Part shown: positions 15,773 to 22,737 of the stretch, in pieces | Layout of the letters: each line of letters begins with the position of its first letter | How positions within the stretch are numbered: position 1 is the first letter of the stretch | Assembly (NCBI GenBank): GCA_050253415.1 | Contig: JBFWJC010000001.1 | Coordinates: 416,001-480,000 of the forward strand | Reading direction: 5' to 3' | Length of the DNA stretch: 64,000 nt | DNA from: Pedobacter sp. | Lineage (GTDB): Bacteria > Desulfobacterota > Desulfuromonadia > Desulfuromonadales > Syntrophotaleaceae | Made by a program: the position numbers and the translations under genes | The notes under the pieces: model-generated | Told to the model about the DNA's origin: nothing | Databases searched by the model: none | The model's input: the letters and a program-made list of their open reading frames with translations, nothing else

Positions 15773-16193
15773 TGGGTGATAAAAACCAGTTTTCATTTTT
15801 GGAATCTGTTGGTTTTCGGTGTAAACGGCCCCATATATGATTTTGGTGCAGCGGCTTTGTTTCTGATTGTGGTGTATACTGCCACGGAGTGCTAACTTCT
15901 TTTTTTACAATTCTTTCTTGCCCTTGCGTTATGTCCTGTGATATATAGCCATGGTGCCTTAGTGAAAGTTTATAAACAGAACACAGGTTCTTCCTGTTAC
16001 TAAAATATGCTTCAACGCATATTCCTTTCACCTCTAACTATCCTTTCTCATTATTCTTTTTGAGAGTGGACGGTTTTGACCTTTTATTTCGCGTAGATTT
16101 TTGGTCATACCGCTACTTCTTTTAGGCACAGTTGATCCTTGCAATTGAACGAGTAATTCATAGTGTCTTTAAAGGTAAGACAGGATATCTGGA

Positions 16194-16391
16194 ATGCATG
16201 ATAGTGGCGAGCGCGACGTTCGTAGGCAGGTAGTCACCAATATCAGAGTGCCTAACTCCGTTTGGAAAAAACGCGTATGCGAGACCTTGCTCGATTTAAA
16301 TATAATCCCTGAACATTTTTCAGGTAAATTGGTGATCTCCTTTAAAAATGGGGGCATCAGCTACATAGAGAAGACTCAGACATTTAAATAA
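16194..16391 (+). CDS. small protein, DUF2292/YezD/OscA-like C-terminus (copy 1)
   Basis: 65 aa ending FSGKLVISFKNGGISYIEKTQTFK; paralogue at 18417 differs mostly at synonymous positions; family assignment by pattern only. Confidence 0.75.
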   Translation: MHDSGERDVRRQVVTNIRVPNSVWKKRVCETLLDLNIIPEHFSGKLVISFKNGGISYIEKTQTFK

Positions 16392-16393
16392 GT

Positions 16394-16482
16394 TGCGCTA
16401 ATTTCGACCTCTGCCTGATCAACAGACCTAACGAAACCCGCACCCAATACCAAAATCAATGGTATTGGTGCGGGTTTTTTTT
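16394..16482 (+). promoter_or_regulatory. putative antiterminator hairpin overlapping an intrinsic terminator (copy 1)
   Basis: TGCG-CTAA-TTTCG-ACC-TCTG..CAGA-CCTAA-CGAAA-CC-CGCA; terminator AAACCCGCAC-CCAATACCA/TGGTATTGG-TGCGGG followed by T8. Confidence 0.7.
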
Positions 16483-17011
16483 GTTTATTTTTTTCTACGA
16501 TCCTAAGGGAAAGAATTTTATTAATTTACGAAATCAACAACCTTGAGTTGTTGGCAACATCGGAGGTTTTATGGCTATTGTAAAATGTGCATTTTGTGGG
16601 GAAGACGCGGATAGTGAAAATTACGGAGTTAAGCAATGTTCGAAATGTGGCTTGTGGTTTTGCCATAAACACCTTGGTCAGTACAAGTCGCAATGCATAG
16701 TGTGTAAAGAATATGCTCTCAAAAATAAGTACGGGAGATGAAATTTGCAAAAGTACTTTTAAAGTAACGTACATTTAAAATTAAATTTTGGATTGATCTC
16801 AGGAGTCAATAGCGAGGGTTTCATAAAGAAGTCTTTTTATTCTGGCCTCGTGCCCTCTCTTTTTAATCCTCGCTGCCTGATTTTCGAGGCAATTATCGTT
16901 ACGTTACCGAGTGGTGTGAGTCTAATCCAACGTCGAATGCTTGGCATTTTTTGCTCCCCCCAATGGAAACGCAACTTTTTCTAAACGTATAATGATAAAG
17001 GAGTCTGAATT

Positions 17012-17431
17012 ATGAAAGTTTGCTTTCCTATATCAGAAGATTTTGGTGTGAAAAGTACTGTTTATGGACATTTCAATTCTGCCCCTTTCTTTCTTGTCGT
17101 AGATACCGATACAAAGGAAACCCTGACTATAGCTAATTGCGATCCAAAAAATCCTTTAGCAGGGTGCGATCCATTCAGTGCTCTTAAGGTTTACGATATC
17201 GATGGTATTATTGCCGGATGTATGGGAGATAGTGCTCTTCAAGCCATGAACCTCTGCGGGTTCCGGGTATATGAGGCAGAATCCGAAAATCTTATTGAAA
17301 ATATGGAACTGTTTAACCAAGAGAAGCTTCAGGAAAGCGTCGTGCAAAATAGTGCTGCCGAGGGAAGATGCTCTGATGGCGAAAGTTCTTCAGGCGAGGG
17401 TTGCGGTCACGATCATGATCACGAGCTTTGA
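17012..17431 (+). CDS. NifB/NifX-family (dinitrogenase Fe-Mo cofactor-binding domain) protein
   Basis: MKVCFP, GHFNSAPFF, MG..A motifs; Cys/His-rich tail CGHDHDHEL; AAGGAG RBS. Confidence 0.85.
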   Translation: MKVCFPISEDFGVKSTVYGHFNSAPFFLVVDTDTKETLTIANCDPKNPLAGCDPFSALKVYDIDGIIAGCMGDSALQAMNLCGFRVYEAESENLIENMELFNQEKLQESVVQNSAAEGRCSDGESSSGEGCGHDHDHEL

Positions 17432-18416
17432 CCATCAAAATTAATGCGATAGCAAAAAATCCTGCGATAGAAGAAAAAAATTCCTAAAAGTCCTGGTTAT
17501 TCCCAGGGAAGAGGGCATTCCTGGTATCTGAGAACATGAAGAAACGCGGTAATACGGTAGCTCTGGATTTAATTGGGCGGTTCGCTCTAGATGCTCTCTA
17601 GGGCGAACCCGCCGTCAATTAATGCAACCATGACTTCAGCCCAACAAGAGCTCCATACTTTCCCCCTCATCTCTCTGGGCGACAAGGAACATTATGCTCG
17701 ATGCCTTCGGTTAGTTACGGGCGCATTTGGATATGTCCTTTTTACGCTGGCAGTGACATCTGCAAAATTACTAAAAAAGGATTTAGGTATGTAAAGCCTA
17801 CTTCGCACGACCCAATTATTGAATACAGATATCAAATGTCTAATTGTTTATCTAAATCGGCTCCGCTTGCCGATTATCTGACTAGCGAAAAACGATGTAG
17901 AATCTCTACCTCGTTGTAGCGGAAACCTGTCGAGTACCATAATCACTTCAATTTACCTGTTCTTCAAATCCCGATACCGTCTGTAATGCCGTATTAACAT
18001 AAAGCTTGTTTTGAAGATTTGGTTCGCTGGGCGGAAGGAATACCCAGCTAATGTGAATATGTAAAGAGCTGTGAAAATCACCAAAAAAAGTTCGTTTACA
18101 CAAAACCATGTGTTGGAAATAGTTGTTTACGGTAACTAATAGTCTTTTTTGTCTTTTACTGTTATTTTTACCTTGCTTGTTATTATCTGCTTTGTTAAAA
18201 AGATTGCCACACTGCTTGATTCTTTGGAAAAAAACAGCGTTCGAAAGTTTTTTATTTTGAACTTCTCCCTGGATCGAAAATTTGTGAAGGGGGGATATAG
18301 CCCCAAGCAGCGGGGCGTTGGCGGATTGGCCTCTACGGACTGTTTGTGAAGTATGGAAACTGACGAACATGAAGTTTCCGCCGCAAAATTCATCGCCAAA
18401 CACGCAGGTGATAATT

Positions 18417-18650
18417 ATGCATATCCCTGAACTTTGTTATCAGGACAAACTATTGGAAGAAAAATCACGGACCCGAACACAAAAGTACTCTGGCCAGGCT
18501 GGGCCCAAAAATGTGGCTGTCTGCAAGAGATCTATAGCAACTTTTTTGGCAAATACCGAATTGATTACGCCGAACTTCTCAGGGAAACTTATTATCTCTT
18601 TTAAGGAGGGTGGCATCAGCTATATAGAAAAGGTAGAGCAAATCAAGTAA
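18417..18650 (+). CDS. small protein, DUF2292/YezD/OscA-like C-terminus (copy 2)
   Basis: Ends FSGKLIISFKEGGISYIEKVEQIK; AGGTG RBS before ATG 18417 (alternative start 18369). Confidence 0.75.
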   Translation: MHIPELCYQDKLLEEKSRTRTQKYSGQAGPKNVAVCKRSIATFLANTELITPNFSGKLIISFKEGGISYIEKVEQIK

Positions 18651-18680
18651 CTTCCCTCTACATAAAAAATAAATAGTCAC

Positions 18681-18764
18681 GCGCTTATTTCGTCCTCTGC
18701 TTAGTCAGACTTAGCGAAACCCGCATCGATTCCTGAAATTCAGGATATCAATGCGGGTTTTTTT
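18681..18764 (+). promoter_or_regulatory. putative antiterminator hairpin overlapping an intrinsic terminator (copy 2)
   Basis: GCG-CTTA-TTTCG-TCC-TCTG..CAGA-CTTAG-CGAAA-CC-CGC; terminator AAACCCGCAT..TCCTGA/TCAGGA..ATGCGGG followed by T7. Confidence 0.7.
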
Positions 18765-18782: not shown

Positions 18783-19817
18783 ATGAAGAGCATGCAACAA
18801 ATCGTCCCCGTTGAACAAGCTGTAGGTAAAATTCTTTCTCATGATATCACGCGTATAGTACCCGGAGAATTCAAGGGGCGAGCCTATAAAAAAGGGCACA
18901 TGATTACAGCCGAGGATGTTCCACAGCTCAAAAAACTTGGCAAGGACCACATTTATATTCTTAACCTCGGTGATGGCCTGGTGCATGAGAATGAAGCAGC
19001 TCAACGTATTGCGAAGGCGATCAGCGGGCCGTTCCTTCATTTCGGAGAGCCGAATCAAGGTAAAATTGAATTAACCTCGGAGCTGGATGGGCTGCTTAAA
19101 ATAAACCTTAACCTATTGAATCAGCTAAATGAAATTCCGGACGTTACCATCGCAACAGTATTAACCAACCAGCCCGTGCGCGTCGGGTCGACGGTTGCCG
19201 GCACGCGCATTATCCCCCTGTATACCCAAGAAGAAAATCTTCTTCAGCTAGAAAATCTCTGCCGCCAAAATTCTGCGTTAATCACTGTAAAACCTTACCA
19301 GCACTTTCGTGTGGGATTGATTACTACTGGAACCGAAGTGTTTCTTGGGCGTATCCCAGACGGTTTCGGGCCAATAGTAAAAAGCAAATTTGAAGCATAT
19401 GGAAGTGAAGTTTGTCGCCAAGATATCGTTCCTGACGATATATCAAAAATAGCCTCTGCTATTCATGGTCAGATTGCAGAAGGTGCGCAAATGGTCATTT
19501 TGACAGGAGGAATGTCTGTTGATCCAGACGATCTTACCCCCGCTTCTATACGGGCCACAGGCGCGAAAATCGTAATCTATGGTGCCCCTACCTATCCCGG
19601 TGCCATGTTCATGTTGGCAGAATTGCATGGTGTTCCCATTATCGGCCTTCCTGGCTGCACGATGTATCACAAAGCTACAATTTTTGAACTCGTAGTTACT
19701 CGCCTGCTTGCTGGCGAAACCATTACGCGTTCGGACGTTATCGCATTGGGCCATGGAGGATTATGCGCCGGTTGCCAGGATTGCCATTACCCCAATTGCG
19801 GATTCGGCAAAAGCTGA
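18783..19817 (+). CDS. molybdopterin-binding (MoeA-like) protein
   Basis: LSHDITRI, TGGMSVDPDD, PGAM, GLPGC; C-terminal CxxCxxCxYPxCxFGK. Confidence 0.88.
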   Translation: MKSMQQIVPVEQAVGKILSHDITRIVPGEFKGRAYKKGHMITAEDVPQLKKLGKDHIYILNLGDGLVHENEAAQRIAKAISGPFLHFGEPNQGKIELTSELDGLLKINLNLLNQLNEIPDVTIATVLTNQPVRVGSTVAGTRIIPLYTQEENLLQLENLCRQNSALITVKPYQHFRVGLITTGTEVFLGRIPDGFGPIVKSKFEAYGSEVCRQDIVPDDISKIASAIHGQIAEGAQMVILTGGMSVDPDDLTPASIRATGAKIVIYGAPTYPGAMFMLAELHGVPIIGLPGCTMYHKATIFELVVTRLLAGETITRSDVIALGHGGLCAGCQDCHYPNCGFGKS

Positions 19818-19881: not shown

Positions 19882-22737
19882 ATGATCAAGAAGACTCTAA
19901 ATGTCAACGGTATCGACCGTGTCCTGATCATCGATCAGGAGTCACTGCTTAGCGATGTTTTGCGCAAGCAGTTACAGCTGACAGGTACCAAGGTAGGTTG
20001 CGGTACCGGTCAATGCGGTGCTTGCAGTGTCATCGTGGATGGCAAACTGGTGCGCTCTTGCGTAACCAAGATGAAACGGATTCCGGACCTGGCCAAAATC
20101 ACTACCATCGAAGGGATCGGTTCGCCTCTCAATTTGCATCCCATTCAGAAGGCTTTTGTCAAAAACGGAGCGATCCAATGCGGGTTCTGTACTCCCGGCT
20201 TTGTTGTGTCGACCAAGCTGCTGCTTGATGAGAACCCCGATCCGACCCGTGAGGAAGTGCGTGATTGGTTTCAGAAGCATCGCAATGCCTGCCGCTGCAC
20301 CGGCTATGTCATGATCGTCGACTCGGTCATGGACGCCGCCAAGGTGCTGCGCGGTGAAATGGCGGAATCCGCCCTTGACTTTAAATTGCCGTCTGATGGC
20401 AAAGTCTACGGTACTTGTATGCCGCGTCCGACTTCGGTACCCAAGGTTTGCGGTCTGTGGGACTTCGGCGAAGACATGCGCCAGCAACTTCCGGACAATA
20501 CCTTGGAATGCGCCCTCGTGCAGGCGGAAGTAGCCCATGCCAATATCAGGGGCATCGATACCTCCGAAGCGGAAAAGATGCCCGGCGTTGTGAAAGTGGT
20601 AACGCACAAGGACATCAAAGGTAAAAACCGCATTACCGGTCTGATCACCTTCCCCACCAACAAGGGGGACGGCTGGGATCGCCCCATTCTTAACGATGAA
20701 AAGATCTTCCAGTTCGGCGACGTTCTGGCCATCGTTTGCGCCGATACCCGCGAACACGCCAAGGCGGCAGCCAAGAAGGTGGTACTCGATCTCGAGGTCC
20801 TGCCGGCTTACATGAACGCTCTCGCAGCCAAGGCCGAGGATGCCATCGAGATTCATCCCGGCACTCCGAATGTCTACTACGATTGCATTGTCAAGAAAGG
20901 CGAGGAAACCAAGCCGTATTTTGATAAAGCCGCTCACGTTATCGAAGGCAGCTACTACCTTGGCCGCCAGCCTCATATGCCCCTCGAGCCCGATGTCGGT
21001 TTTGCCTATATCGATGACGAGGATCGTGTTGTCGTGCATTCCAAGTCGATCGGCATCCATCTGCATCACGCCATGATCTGTCCGGGACTCGGCCTCGAGC
21101 CTGAAAAACTGGTCATACGGCAGAACCCTACCGGCGCTACCTTCGGTTATAAGTTCAGCCCGACCATGGAAGCTTTGGTCGCTGCCGCCACCATGGCTAC
21201 CGGCCGCCCCTGTTTCCTGGGTTACGACTGGTTTCAGCAGCAGACCTACACCGGCAAGCGTTCCCCGGCATTCTTGAATGTGCGTCTGGCCGCCGACGAG
21301 GAAGGCAATTTCCTCGCTCTGGAAACCGACTGGGATCTCGACCATGGTCCCTATTCCGAGTTTGGTGACCTGGTTACCTGCCGCCAGGCCCAGTTCACTG
21401 GGGCTGGTTACGATATCAAGCATATCCGCGGCCATGGTCGTACCGTCGCCACCAACCATGCCTGGGGCTCCGCTTTCCGCGGTTATGGCTCGCCGCAGGC
21501 GTTCTTGGCTTCGGAATCGTTGGTCGACGAACTCGCCAAGAAAATGGGTGTGGATCCCTTGGAACTTCGTTACAAGAACATTTATCGTCCCGGCGCCACC
21601 ACCCCGACCGGGCAGACACCGGAAGTTTTCTGTTTCGAAGAGATGTTCGACATTCTGCGTCCCAAATACAAGGATGCACTGGAGCGGGCAAGAACCGGTT
21701 CCACGGAAACCAAGAAGCGCGGCGTCGGCATTTCCCTCGGGATTTACGGCTGCGGCCTTGACGGCCCGGACACCTCCGGTGCCTGGGCTCAGTTGGAAGA
21801 AGATGGCAGCGTTACCATCGGTACCGCCTGGGAATGCCATGGCCAGGGCGCGGATATGGGCACGGTTGCTTTCGCGCACGAAGCCCTGCGTCCGCTTGGT
21901 CTGACCCCCGAGCAGATCCACCTGAGCATGTGCGACACATCTCTGCACCCGAATGCCGGTCCCTCCGGCGGCAGCCGCCAGAATGTCGTTTCCGGGAATG
22001 CCATCCACGCAGCCAGTGTCAATTTGCTCAATGCCATGCGCAAAAACAATGGCACCTATCGAACCTACGGAGAAATGATCGCCGAAGGGATCGATGTCAG
22101 GCATGAGGGGACCTATACCACCCCTTGCACACATATGGATCTCGATGATCAACAAGGCAATCCTTTCTGCATCTACATGTATGCCTTGTTCATGTCCGAG
22201 GTAGTCGTGGATATCACCACCGGTAAGACCGAAGTGGTTAAAATGACCTATGTTGGCGACAACGGTACCATCACCAATCGTCTGTTGGTTGACGGCCAGG
22301 TCTATGGCGGTCTGGCCCAAGGCATAGGCCTGGGTCTTAGCGAAGACTTCGAATTTATCAAAGCCCATTCGAATATGATCGGTGCCGGGTTCCCCTTCAT
22401 CAAGGACGTTCCCGATGACTTGGAGCTGATCTACGTCGAAACGCCGCGTAAAGACGGAGCTCTCGGACAAGGTGGTTGTGGCGAAGGTCCGCTGACTTCT
22501 CCGCACGTCTCCATTATTAATGCCATCGACCATGCTTGCGGGGCACGTATCCGCTCCCTTCCTGCATACCCCGAGAAGGTTCTGCAGGCATTGCAGTCCG
22601 AGAAGAAGTCTTTCGACATTGAGGATGCACTGGAAGGCGGCTGGATTTCCGACAGCGTTGATGCGGAACCGCCTACCAAGAAGAAAGCAGCCAAAAAAGC
22701 AGCCGCGACGGGTTCCCAGCCTGCAGCTGCCGAGTGA
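19882..22737 (+). CDS. mop: molybdopterin-dependent aldehyde oxidoreductase (xanthine oxidase family, MOP type, no FAD domain)
   Basis: GCGTGQCGAC, QCGFC, CRCTGY [2Fe-2S] motifs; FGYK, AFRGYG, GQG, GE motifs. Confidence 0.95.
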   Translation: MIKKTLNVNGIDRVLIIDQESLLSDVLRKQLQLTGTKVGCGTGQCGACSVIVDGKLVRSCVTKMKRIPDLAKITTIEGIGSPLNLHPIQKAFVKNGAIQCGFCTPGFVVSTKLLLDENPDPTREEVRDWFQKHRNACRCTGYVMIVDSVMDAAKVLRGEMAESALDFKLPSDGKVYGTCMPRPTSVPKVCGLWDFGEDMRQQLPDNTLECALVQAEVAHANIRGIDTSEAEKMPGVVKVVTHKDIKGKNRITGLITFPTNKGDGWDRPILNDEKIFQFGDVLAIVCADTREHAKAAAKKVVLDLEVLPAYMNALAAKAEDAIEIHPGTPNVYYDCIVKKGEETKPYFDKAAHVIEGSYYLGRQPHMPLEPDVGFAYIDDEDRVVVHSKSIGIHLHHAMICPGLGLEPEKLVIRQNPTGATFGYKFSPTMEALVAAATMATGRPCFLGYDWFQQQTYTGKRSPAFLNVRLAADEEGNFLALETDWDLDHGPYSEFGDLVTCRQAQFTGAGYDIKHIRGHGRTVATNHAWGSAFRGYGSPQAFLASESLVDELAKKMGVDPLELRYKNIYRPGATTPTGQTPEVFCFEEMFDILRPKYKDALERARTGSTETKKRGVGISLGIYGCGLDGPDTSGAWAQLEEDGSVTIGTAWECHGQGADMGTVAFAHEALRPLGLTPEQIHLSMCDTSLHPNAGPSGGSRQNVVSGNAIHAASVNLLNAMRKNNGTYRTYGEMIAEGIDVRHEGTYTTPCTHMDLDDQQGNPFCIYMYALFMSEVVVDITTGKTEVVKMTYVGDNGTITNRLLVDGQVYGGLAQGIGLGLSEDFEFIKAHSNMIGAGFPFIKDVPDDLELIYVETPRKDGALGQGGCGEGPLTSPHVSIINAIDHACGARIRSLPAYPEKVLQALQSEKKSFDIEDALEGGWISDSVDAEPPTKKKAAKKAAATGSQPAAAE

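Follow-up and report, generated by a model that had tools for sequence, protein, structure and literature searches.

What decides whether transcription passes two strong terminators that each follow a small gene in a Pedobacter sp. genome? The window analyzed here, that is, the whole 64,000-nt stretch from position 416,001 to 480,000 of contig JBFWJC010000001.1 (assembly GCA_050253415.1), contains two modules, each consisting of a small open reading frame (ORF), a conserved RNA and an intrinsic terminator. Both RNA copies are the Moco-II motif of Rfam (RF01713), which is already catalogued. Comparative genomics strongly suggests that the small protein acts on the Moco-II RNA. The more specific reading, in which it would be a trans-acting antiterminator for Moco-II that relays molybdate status from ModE, has in our estimate an even chance of being correct.

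Two modules of a small ORF, Moco-II and a terminator

The initial annotation of this DNA had described a two-part module, in which a small ORF is followed by a conserved RNA with a strong terminator, as occurring twice, and the repeats, the folds and the shared C-terminus bear this out. A repeat search gave two direct repeats, one of 78 nt with 71% identity (16317-16394 and 18576-18653) and one of 59 nt with 75% identity (16423-16481 and 18706-18764). ORF A (16194..16391, + strand) encodes the small protein type A of 65 amino acids (net charge +4, pI 9.7). ORF B (18417..18650, + strand) encodes type B of 77 amino acids (net charge +4) when counted from the ATG behind the Shine-Dalgarno sequence AGGTGA; its longest open frame starts with a TTG at 18318. 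The common C-terminus of the two proteins is FSGKL(V/I)ISFK(N/E)GGISYIEK..K-stop, and the distance from the stop codon to the conserved GCGC is 4 nt in copy 1 and 31 nt in copy 2. The module region is AT-rich, with a GC content of 0.38-0.44 versus 0.54-0.60 in the flanks. In the last 27 codons, 10 are identical between A and B, 9 differ synonymously and 8 non-synonymously, and the differences at the three codon positions number 9/3/15. These values indicate that A and B are real coding sequences under purifying selection, as initially claimed, and that their likeness is kept at the protein level. On the other hand, the view that only the protein C-terminus and the RNA are conserved was too narrow, since the two proteins are homologous across approximately 40 residues, comprising a helix plus a hairpin, with 40% identity in alignment A1.

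The two Moco-II copies are located on the + strand at 16394..16441 (43.1 bits) and 18680..18724 (45.9 bits; gathering score 35), and both match model positions 1-46 of 46. Moco-II was first published by Weinberg et al. 2010 (PMC2864571). The main-text table classes it as cis-regulatory and does not decide whether it is a riboswitch, and the entry in the supplementary table is 'Y TT', which stands for transcription terminators, with 8 hits (PMC2864571). As far as the available portion of the paper goes, the window copies agree with this description in the full-model match, the molybdopterin-binding-domain gene downstream and the terminators, and the RNA itself shows no difference. Neither a small ORF upstream of Moco-II nor a ModE box nor a partner protein is mentioned in the same portion (PMC2864571).

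The Moco-II fold competes with the terminator

The anatomy of this 46-nt single hairpin was examined using 73 distinct sequences. They form an irregular hairpin with an internal loop, composed of P1 (UUUCG:CGAAA) and P2, between conserved single-stranded flanks, and 94% of the cells pair. P2 contains three covarying pairs with 22, 6 and 8 double changes. We propose that a further helix, P0 (GCG:CGC), joins the conserved 5' and 3' tails.

A strict terminator, defined as a hairpin plus a U-tract, was found behind 61 of the 73 copies, and its 5' arm starts at the motif-ending CCCGC in 53 of these. The 12 copies without a strict terminator comprise four that are the first of tandem pairs, four with interrupted U-tracts, one at a locus end and three with no obvious terminator. 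In the window, RNA folding placed terminator 1 (AAACCCGCACC...GGUGCGGGUUUUUUUU) at 16434..16482 (+), where the 3' tail of Moco-II serves as its 5' arm, and terminator 2 at 18717..18764 (+). Both hairpins are followed by 7-8 T; their loops are larger than 8 nt and are missed by a simple terminator scanner, and RNAfold was used instead. Joint folding of RNA and terminator gave -30.1 and -30.5 kcal/mol for the two copies, with z values of -5.3 and -4.9. The full-length RNA (approximately -30 kcal/mol) thus forms the terminator, by which P0 and part of P1 are consumed. When the 3' arm of the terminator was left out, the minimum-energy fold became P0+P1+P2, with -7.9 and -9.6 kcal/mol as compared with a median of approximately -22 kcal/mol for the terminators; the two structures have the bases at CGAAACCCGC in common. 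Because the Moco-II fold and the far stronger terminator 5' arm share these CGAAACCCGC bases, the conserved fold is expected to be a weak antiterminator and termination the default, and stabilization of the fold would give read-through. The attenuator proposed in the initial annotation, an internal-loop hairpin that overlaps the terminator 5' arm, is supported by the 53 overlaps among 61 terminators and by the folding.

In the BglG/SacY-LicT systems, the internal-loop hairpin called RAT overlaps the 5' arm of a stronger terminator, and its stabilization leads to read-through. The Moco-II hairpin is similar in that it has an internal loop, is the weaker structure and competes with the terminator for the same bases. 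In contrast, the window proteins have neither CAT nor PRD domains, and the RNA sequence and the regulon are different.

The small proteins form a family of basic, probably dimeric proteins

A search with type A yielded 71 homologues at E <= 0.01, all of which are named 'hypothetical protein' where a name is given (e.g., Pcar_3168 of Syntrophotalea carbinolica). The family profile gave only 82 matches at E <= 0.001 among 1.84 billion cluster representatives. Members have 57-90 residues and are basic, with a net charge of +2 to +6 in 16 of 16 aligned members, and free-standing homologues exist as well. For these 16 members, no Pfam family was found at E <= 0.1 beyond chance-level matches; NCBIfam and PHROGs contained no family for the small proteins, and a sequence search of PDB gave no match.

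The AlphaFold2 model of protein A has a mean predicted local distance difference test (pLDDT) value of 80, exceeding 90 over residues 31-60, and consists of a helix (23-34) and a beta hairpin (44-62). The homodimer model scored 0.48, compared with 0.00 for the best of three controls. By rough counts obtained with the use of our own alignment, 20 of 30 proteins whose solved structures are pairs of one chain attained a score of 0.48, as did 1 of 23 that were solved as single chains. At least 82% of the contacts agreed between the homodimer runs, with a partner pLDDT of at least 63. In the modeled interface, strand 42-53 is paired over a two-fold axis, with the helix contributing. The models suggest that the small proteins probably form symmetric dimers.

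Weak leads to more distant relatives came from the ESM Atlas, namely viral hypothetical clusters (0.81-0.84) and one cluster (0.76) in which 27% of the members carry DUF2292. At one locus (L111, G182:C87), a homologue of the small protein adjoins a phage SU10-type portal gene. This locus and the mostly viral ESM Atlas neighbors suggest that the wider family may also occur in phages. Identity with a molbindin/TOBE fragment, suggested by resemblance, was dropped, since no TOBE match appeared in any scan.

DUF2292/YezD (PF10055) resembles the window family in size and in having a helix followed by a beta hairpin that ends ..G.(V/I)..(I/V)(D/E)K.EK.. The hhalign comparison was weak, with E values of 0.016 (A1) and 0.0046 (A4), the alignments being collinear over 31-33 columns. 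The DUF2292 Pfam model (cut-off 22 bits) matched none of the 16 members and nothing in the whole genome at E <= 10, and 3 of 69 distant relatives reached 17-19 bits with it. Unlike the window family, DUF2292 genes are found at other loci, in sulfate clusters, and their products are less basic. By eye, a short common motif (GCUGACC..A(C/A)YGGAGGCC) and a terminator are visible behind the DUF2292 gene in 5 of 12 loci with 120 nt read downstream (L120, L121, L124, L126 and L131); Rfam had nothing at this motif, and these five genes lie in sulfate-uptake, cysteine-synthase and sulfite-reductase clusters.

Occurrence and spacing of the gene and the RNA

The distribution of gene and RNA was examined in an order sample and a class sample, each of 151 genomes (those of the class sample were all at least 90% complete; genomes are given as G, loci as L and families as f numbers). 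When both samples were pooled, the small protein was present in all 18 genomes with Moco-II, and in no genome did either of the two occur alone. In the order sample, Moco-II occurred in 12 of 151 genomes, and the small-protein profile matched 12 of these 12; six genomes of the window's family had neither RNA nor protein. In the class sample, Moco-II occurred in 11 of 151 genomes, and protein matches at E <= 3e-19 were found in exactly those 11. The class-sample carriers are patchily distributed over three families, with 4 of 7 genomes in f1 (the window's own genome excluded), 3 of 39 in f28 and 3 of 26 in f29. Furthermore, four genomes with an orthologous aldehyde oxidoreductase (more than 1600 bits) had neither Moco-II nor a strong protein match, which indicates that the protein tracks the RNA and not the enzyme.

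The profile also matched G024 and G067, which contain weak tandem intermediate homologues and no canonical Moco-II (best E 0.94). At locus L059 (G024:C1:3574000-3580500), and likewise in G067, two such homologues stand in tandem. By eye, the first one is followed by a hairpin and terminator that look like a diverged Moco-II (UUUCCA..UGGAAAGACCCGC), and the second by a Cys-rich small ORF. No Pfam matches were obtained for the downstream minus-strand ORFs within L059.

Of the 24 gene copies in the order sample's 12 Moco-II genomes, 22 end within 80 nt 5' of a Moco-II on the same strand; the distances for the other two are 262 nt and 755 nt, the latter with a NifX-like gene in between. Among the six genomes added by the class sample, four have the gene 0.7-1.0 kb 5' of Moco-II. 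The initial annotation had left it to be checked whether homologous ORFs precede the RNA motif, and they do so in other species. A set of 28 loci, mostly from Geobacteraceae, was collected, 26 of which were long enough to assess, and Moco-II was found above its gathering score 3-330 nt past the stop codon in 23 of the 26. Of the remaining three loci, one matches the regular expression only and two have Moco-II elsewhere in the flank. The stop-to-motif spacing is 3-14 nt for type A in the window's family, 29-80 nt for type B and 40-330 nt for type A in Geobacteraceae. In addition, a small ORF is lacking beside approximately half of the Moco-II copies, so that any factor would have to act in trans.

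These spacings bear on control through translation of the small ORF, which might act by ribosome occlusion or through a leader or arrest peptide. With a ribosome terminating or stalled at the stop codon, the 5' part of Moco-II would be masked and the balance between hairpin and terminator altered, a mechanism that fits the 3-14 nt spacing of type A in the window's family and the strongest conservation of the paralogues at their C-terminus. However, the spacing of type B (29-80 nt) and of the Geobacteraceae type A (40-330 nt) is too variable for it, many Moco-II copies have no upstream ORF at all, and the ORF ends before the RNA. The predicted folding (pLDDT >90 over residues 31-60) and dimerization of the protein and its free-standing homologues also argue against such control. 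We consider control by translation, which the initial annotation had kept as an option, to be highly improbable at a stop-to-RNA distance of 3 to approximately 330 nt.

A second protein family precedes a different RNA

The small-protein profile also retrieved a second family (..EFTGH(V/I)KINFSQGGIGRIEKFEEIL..; ..FTGHVKINFSQGGIGRIEKFEEIL..), designated family 2, which is related to the window family with an hhalign probability of 97.5 (E 7.6e-12). The family-2 ORFs always precede a conserved hairpin, GGUACYUUGCYGACC-stem-CCRGAAAGCCCG, that runs into a strong terminator (loci L102-L110, e.g., L103:820-913 and L109:4990-5070). No Rfam family matches this hairpin, here called R1. It has four covarying pairs in nine sequences, and a strong terminator takes over its 3' strand, which is the same overlap as in Moco-II.

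A covariance model of R1 gave 47 matches in 17 of the 151 class genomes, 16 of them strong (G156, G165, G170, G179, G181, G191-G193, G195, G197, G204, G205, G209, G217, G218 and G221) and one marginal, with one to five hairpins per genome. The family-2 profile matched all 16 strong R1 genomes and two genomes with intermediate forms. When these two were left out, R1 lay 33-252 nt 3' of the family-2 gene in 17 of 17 strong copies, 8 of which had not been used in building R1. Five genomes have both systems, and in each of them each protein is beside its own RNA. The genes 3' of R1 encode subtilase, glycosyltransferase, PEP-CTERM and lamin-tail proteins, alkaline phosphatase, Mrp-type antiporter subunits and PBP_like_2 proteins, and are not related to molybdenum. 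The cognate pairs, together with an R1 regulon that is unrelated to molybdenum, suggest that these proteins regulate genes rather than handle metals.

At locus L101, the Moco riboswitch RF01055 (879-996, - strand; 63 bits) is located 5' of a family-2 small ORF that R1 follows, so that two different leader RNAs flank one small gene. This riboswitch, reportedly described by Regulski et al. in 2008, is a cis-acting leader of molybdenum (Mo)/tungsten (W) cofactor genes, as is Moco-II; unlike Moco-II, it is a much larger and unrelated RNA, and an Rfam scan found no copy of it at the two window sites. In L107-L109, a further conserved stretch (..AAAGCCAAAAC.CGGG.AACCGGGUGACGGAAAGCC..) lies approximately 280-330 nt past the family-2 ORF and by eye recalls GEMM-type cyclic-dinucleotide riboswitches.

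The small-protein ORFs constitute an unannotated family, and its link to Moco-II appears to be new. Nothing was found in print on the small-protein family, its Moco-II link, the ModE box described below or the family-2/R1 system, with approximately 1.7 million PubMed Central articles and most subscription journals outside the search. The initial annotation had taken the system as a candidate undescribed one; this does not hold for the RNA (RF01713) and, within this search, agrees with what was found for the protein family and its link. Antitermination in Geobacter is reportedly represented by the work on GnfR/ANTAR. In the available part of a 2024 noncoding RNA survey from the Geobacter antitermination literature, the Moco-II and R1 motifs are not mentioned.

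A ModE-type box precedes gene A

A promoter-like sequence, TTGCCC-N18-TATATA, is located at 15918..15949 (+), 267 nt 5' of ORF A, and is overlapped at its -10 element by a ModE-type box, CGTTATGTCCTGTGATATATAGC, at 15927-15949. The box is an inverted repeat of the form CG.TAT(A/G)T..-N-..ATATA.CG; it is unique in the window and was matched in 0 of 100 shuffles. A similar box was found within 450 nt 5' of the orthologous type A ORF in 26 of 28 loci, versus 12 matches in the rest of these loci (142 kb). The sequence is similar to the ModE consensus and to the modDABC site of G. sulfurreducens as these are given in the available part of the source (PMC545781). The genome has a ModE homologue that scores 97.3 bits, just below the cut-off of 98.5. 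Thus, 15927-15949 is a candidate ModE operator, and since gene A stands behind it, the protein would relay molybdate status.

On these grounds, the following mechanism may be proposed. The small basic proteins, probably as symmetric dimers, would bind the Moco-II fold and stabilize it, both here and at the other Moco-II sites of the genome, and the stabilized fold would let RNA polymerase read through the terminator. Protein A, encoded behind the ModE-type box, would thereby convey the molybdate status sensed by ModE to all of the Moco-II regulon, which includes a TonB-dependent uptake operon as well as genes for Mo/W enzymes and for cofactor handling. The protein might act with or without a ligand.

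In the hut operon of Bacillus subtilis, which is controlled by HutP, and in the system of PyrR, the regulator is encoded by the first gene of the operon, and RNA binding by the regulator controls the terminator behind this gene. The pyr operon contains three attenuators, several being spread through one operon. The arrangement in the window would be alike, in that a small gene leads and a terminator controlled by its product would follow. Unlike HutP and PyrR, the window proteins are just 57-90 residues long, and they show no similarity to either in sequence or fold.

A wider reading, to which we give somewhat less than an even chance, would make Moco-II not a riboswitch but the target of a new family of dimeric, RNA-binding helix-plus-hairpin antitermination proteins of 50-90 amino acids, possibly distant kin of DUF2292, which would have diversified into cognate protein/RNA pairs. 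The Moco-II pair would relay ModE-sensed molybdate to the Mo/W regulon, the family-2/R1 pair would serve secreted and surface proteins in Geobacter relatives, and one RNA copy would stand directly behind each regulator gene.

For Moco-II, an orphan among cis-regulatory RNAs since 2010, the small protein encoded right before it is a concrete candidate partner. If antitermination by this protein is correct, Moco-II moves from a riboswitch candidate to a protein-binding antiterminator, and the proteins become minimal RNA-binding regulators of a new family, which would have two or more cognate RNA classes. There would then also be a route by which the molybdate status sensed by ModE could reach operons without a ModE box in Geobacter and Syntrophotalea, bacteria of interest for bioremediation and syntrophy. 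More generally, the case would show that genes too small for functional annotation can be the missing half of 'orphan' RNA motifs.

The Moco-II regulon and the alternatives

The locus is one molybdenum-related transcription unit, or two, starting at the promoter overlapped by the ModE-type box. The gene order is small protein A, Moco-II with terminator, a zinc-ribbon gene, a NifX-like gene, small protein B, Moco-II with terminator, a molybdopterin-binding-domain gene and an aldehyde oxidoreductase gene. The first gene past attenuator 1, taken from the ORF list, is a Cys-rich (zinc-ribbon-like) ORF of 56 amino acids (16571..16741, +). It gave weak zinc-finger matches only, and an ORF of the same size stands at this position in three relatives (L038, L052 and L054). 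It is followed by a Nitro_FeMo-Co (NifX/NifB-like) domain protein gene (17012..17431, +; PF02579, E 1.2e-10), which recurs 3' of type A and Moco-II in relatives. The first gene past attenuator 2 encodes a MoCF_biosynth (molybdopterin-binding) domain protein (18783..19817, +; PF00994, E 1.8e-25), and the next a Mop-type molybdopterin aldehyde oxidoreductase (19882..22737, +; NF045668, 1615.6 bits, cut-off 1100). In the order sample, every one of the 12 genomes with Moco-II has a type B orthologue 5' of the Moco-II copy that precedes the MoCF and aldehyde oxidoreductase genes.

Across these 12 genomes, five kinds of genes were found 3' of Moco-II: the MoCF_biosynth-domain protein with the Mop-type aldehyde oxidoreductase, a TylF-type methyltransferase with the Nitro_FeMo-Co (NifX-like) protein, a methyltransferase with a TonB-dependent receptor and a Peripla_BP_2 protein, NAD-type formate dehydrogenase subunits, and a major facilitator superfamily transporter with MobB. 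The window's own genome has four Moco-II copies: besides the two in the window, a tandem pair is found at another site of this contig (G000:C1:20260-20379, locus L001/L040). The pair has a terminator after the second copy only and no small ORF in front. It precedes an operon of methyltransferase, TonB-dependent receptor and periplasmic-binding-protein genes, a type that also stands behind Moco-II in other genomes. Beside the pair there is a divergent gene, by eye for a regulator with an XRE helix-turn-helix plus a substrate-binding domain.

Another factor might bind Moco-II, such as the NifX-like protein, the zinc-ribbon protein or the XRE/PBP-type regulator at the tandem copies, the small protein then being a conserved neighbor only. 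The recurrence of NifX-like genes in the same loci and the divergent regulator gene beside the tandem pair would fit such a role. However, the small-protein pattern recurs in the family-2/R1 system, where the downstream genes examined encode neither a NifX-like nor a zinc-ribbon domain; we regard a different factor as improbable.

A more serious alternative, although a rather unlikely one in our view, is that Moco-II is a true metabolite or ion riboswitch for a Mo/W cofactor species or an oxyanion. The small protein would then be an accessory, e.g., a cofactor or oxyanion handler placed before the checkpoint and made whenever the promoter fires. The regulon is centered on Mo/W enzymes and cofactor genes, tandem copies are known from some riboswitches, and the listing of Moco-II as cis-regulatory leaves its 'switch' status open in the available part of Weinberg 2010 (PMC2864571). 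DUF2292, the nearest recognizable family, occurs in clusters for sulfate uptake and assimilation, a hint of an oxyanion theme, but the link to it is weak (E 0.016 and 0.0046). A single hairpin of 46 nt is small for a cofactor aptamer, and the gene sits upstream of the element, whereas regulon members are normally downstream. The homologous family 2, tied likewise to R1, serves a regulon unrelated to molybdenum, and the protein tracks the RNA rather than the oxidoreductase.

Several observations weigh against antitermination by the small protein. The tandem Moco-II copies and the molybdenum-centered regulon are equally expected of a metabolite riboswitch. P0 and P1 are almost invariant and gain no support from covariation; P0 is pairable in 98% of the cells and never varies. 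Foldseek with the AlphaFold2 model gave no match in PDB (best E 1.3), whether to a known RNA-binding protein or otherwise. In seven gene copies, the nearest same-strand Moco-II is 262-1000 nt downstream; five of these (G035, G179, G193, G205 and G219) have a gap of 0.7-1 kb, that of G035 being filled by a NifX-like gene. For one further copy (G195:C111), the downstream stretch that was read contains no Moco-II, and the sole match on its contig at E <= 0.001 lies 14 kb upstream. Moreover, gene and RNA are neighbors on the chromosome, and if one locus is gained or lost as a whole, the two can co-occur perfectly even when no function connects them. Owing to this linkage and to the relatedness of the genomes, the counts overstate independence. 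Finally, the direction of ModE control follows from the position of the box alone.

Two further features were seen at other Moco-II copies. A third, truncated small ORF is located at L058 (G070:C1:2352716-2352903), with an open frame of 37 amino acids that covers profile positions 31-63 only; it stands 45 nt 5' of a Moco-II that precedes a second aldehyde oxidoreductase. In the Moco-II formate dehydrogenase operons of three genomes (L036, L048 and L055), the ORF for the NuoG-like/molybdopterin subunit stops at exactly 352 amino acids, just inside the molybdopterin domain, and this stop may be an in-frame selenocysteine codon.

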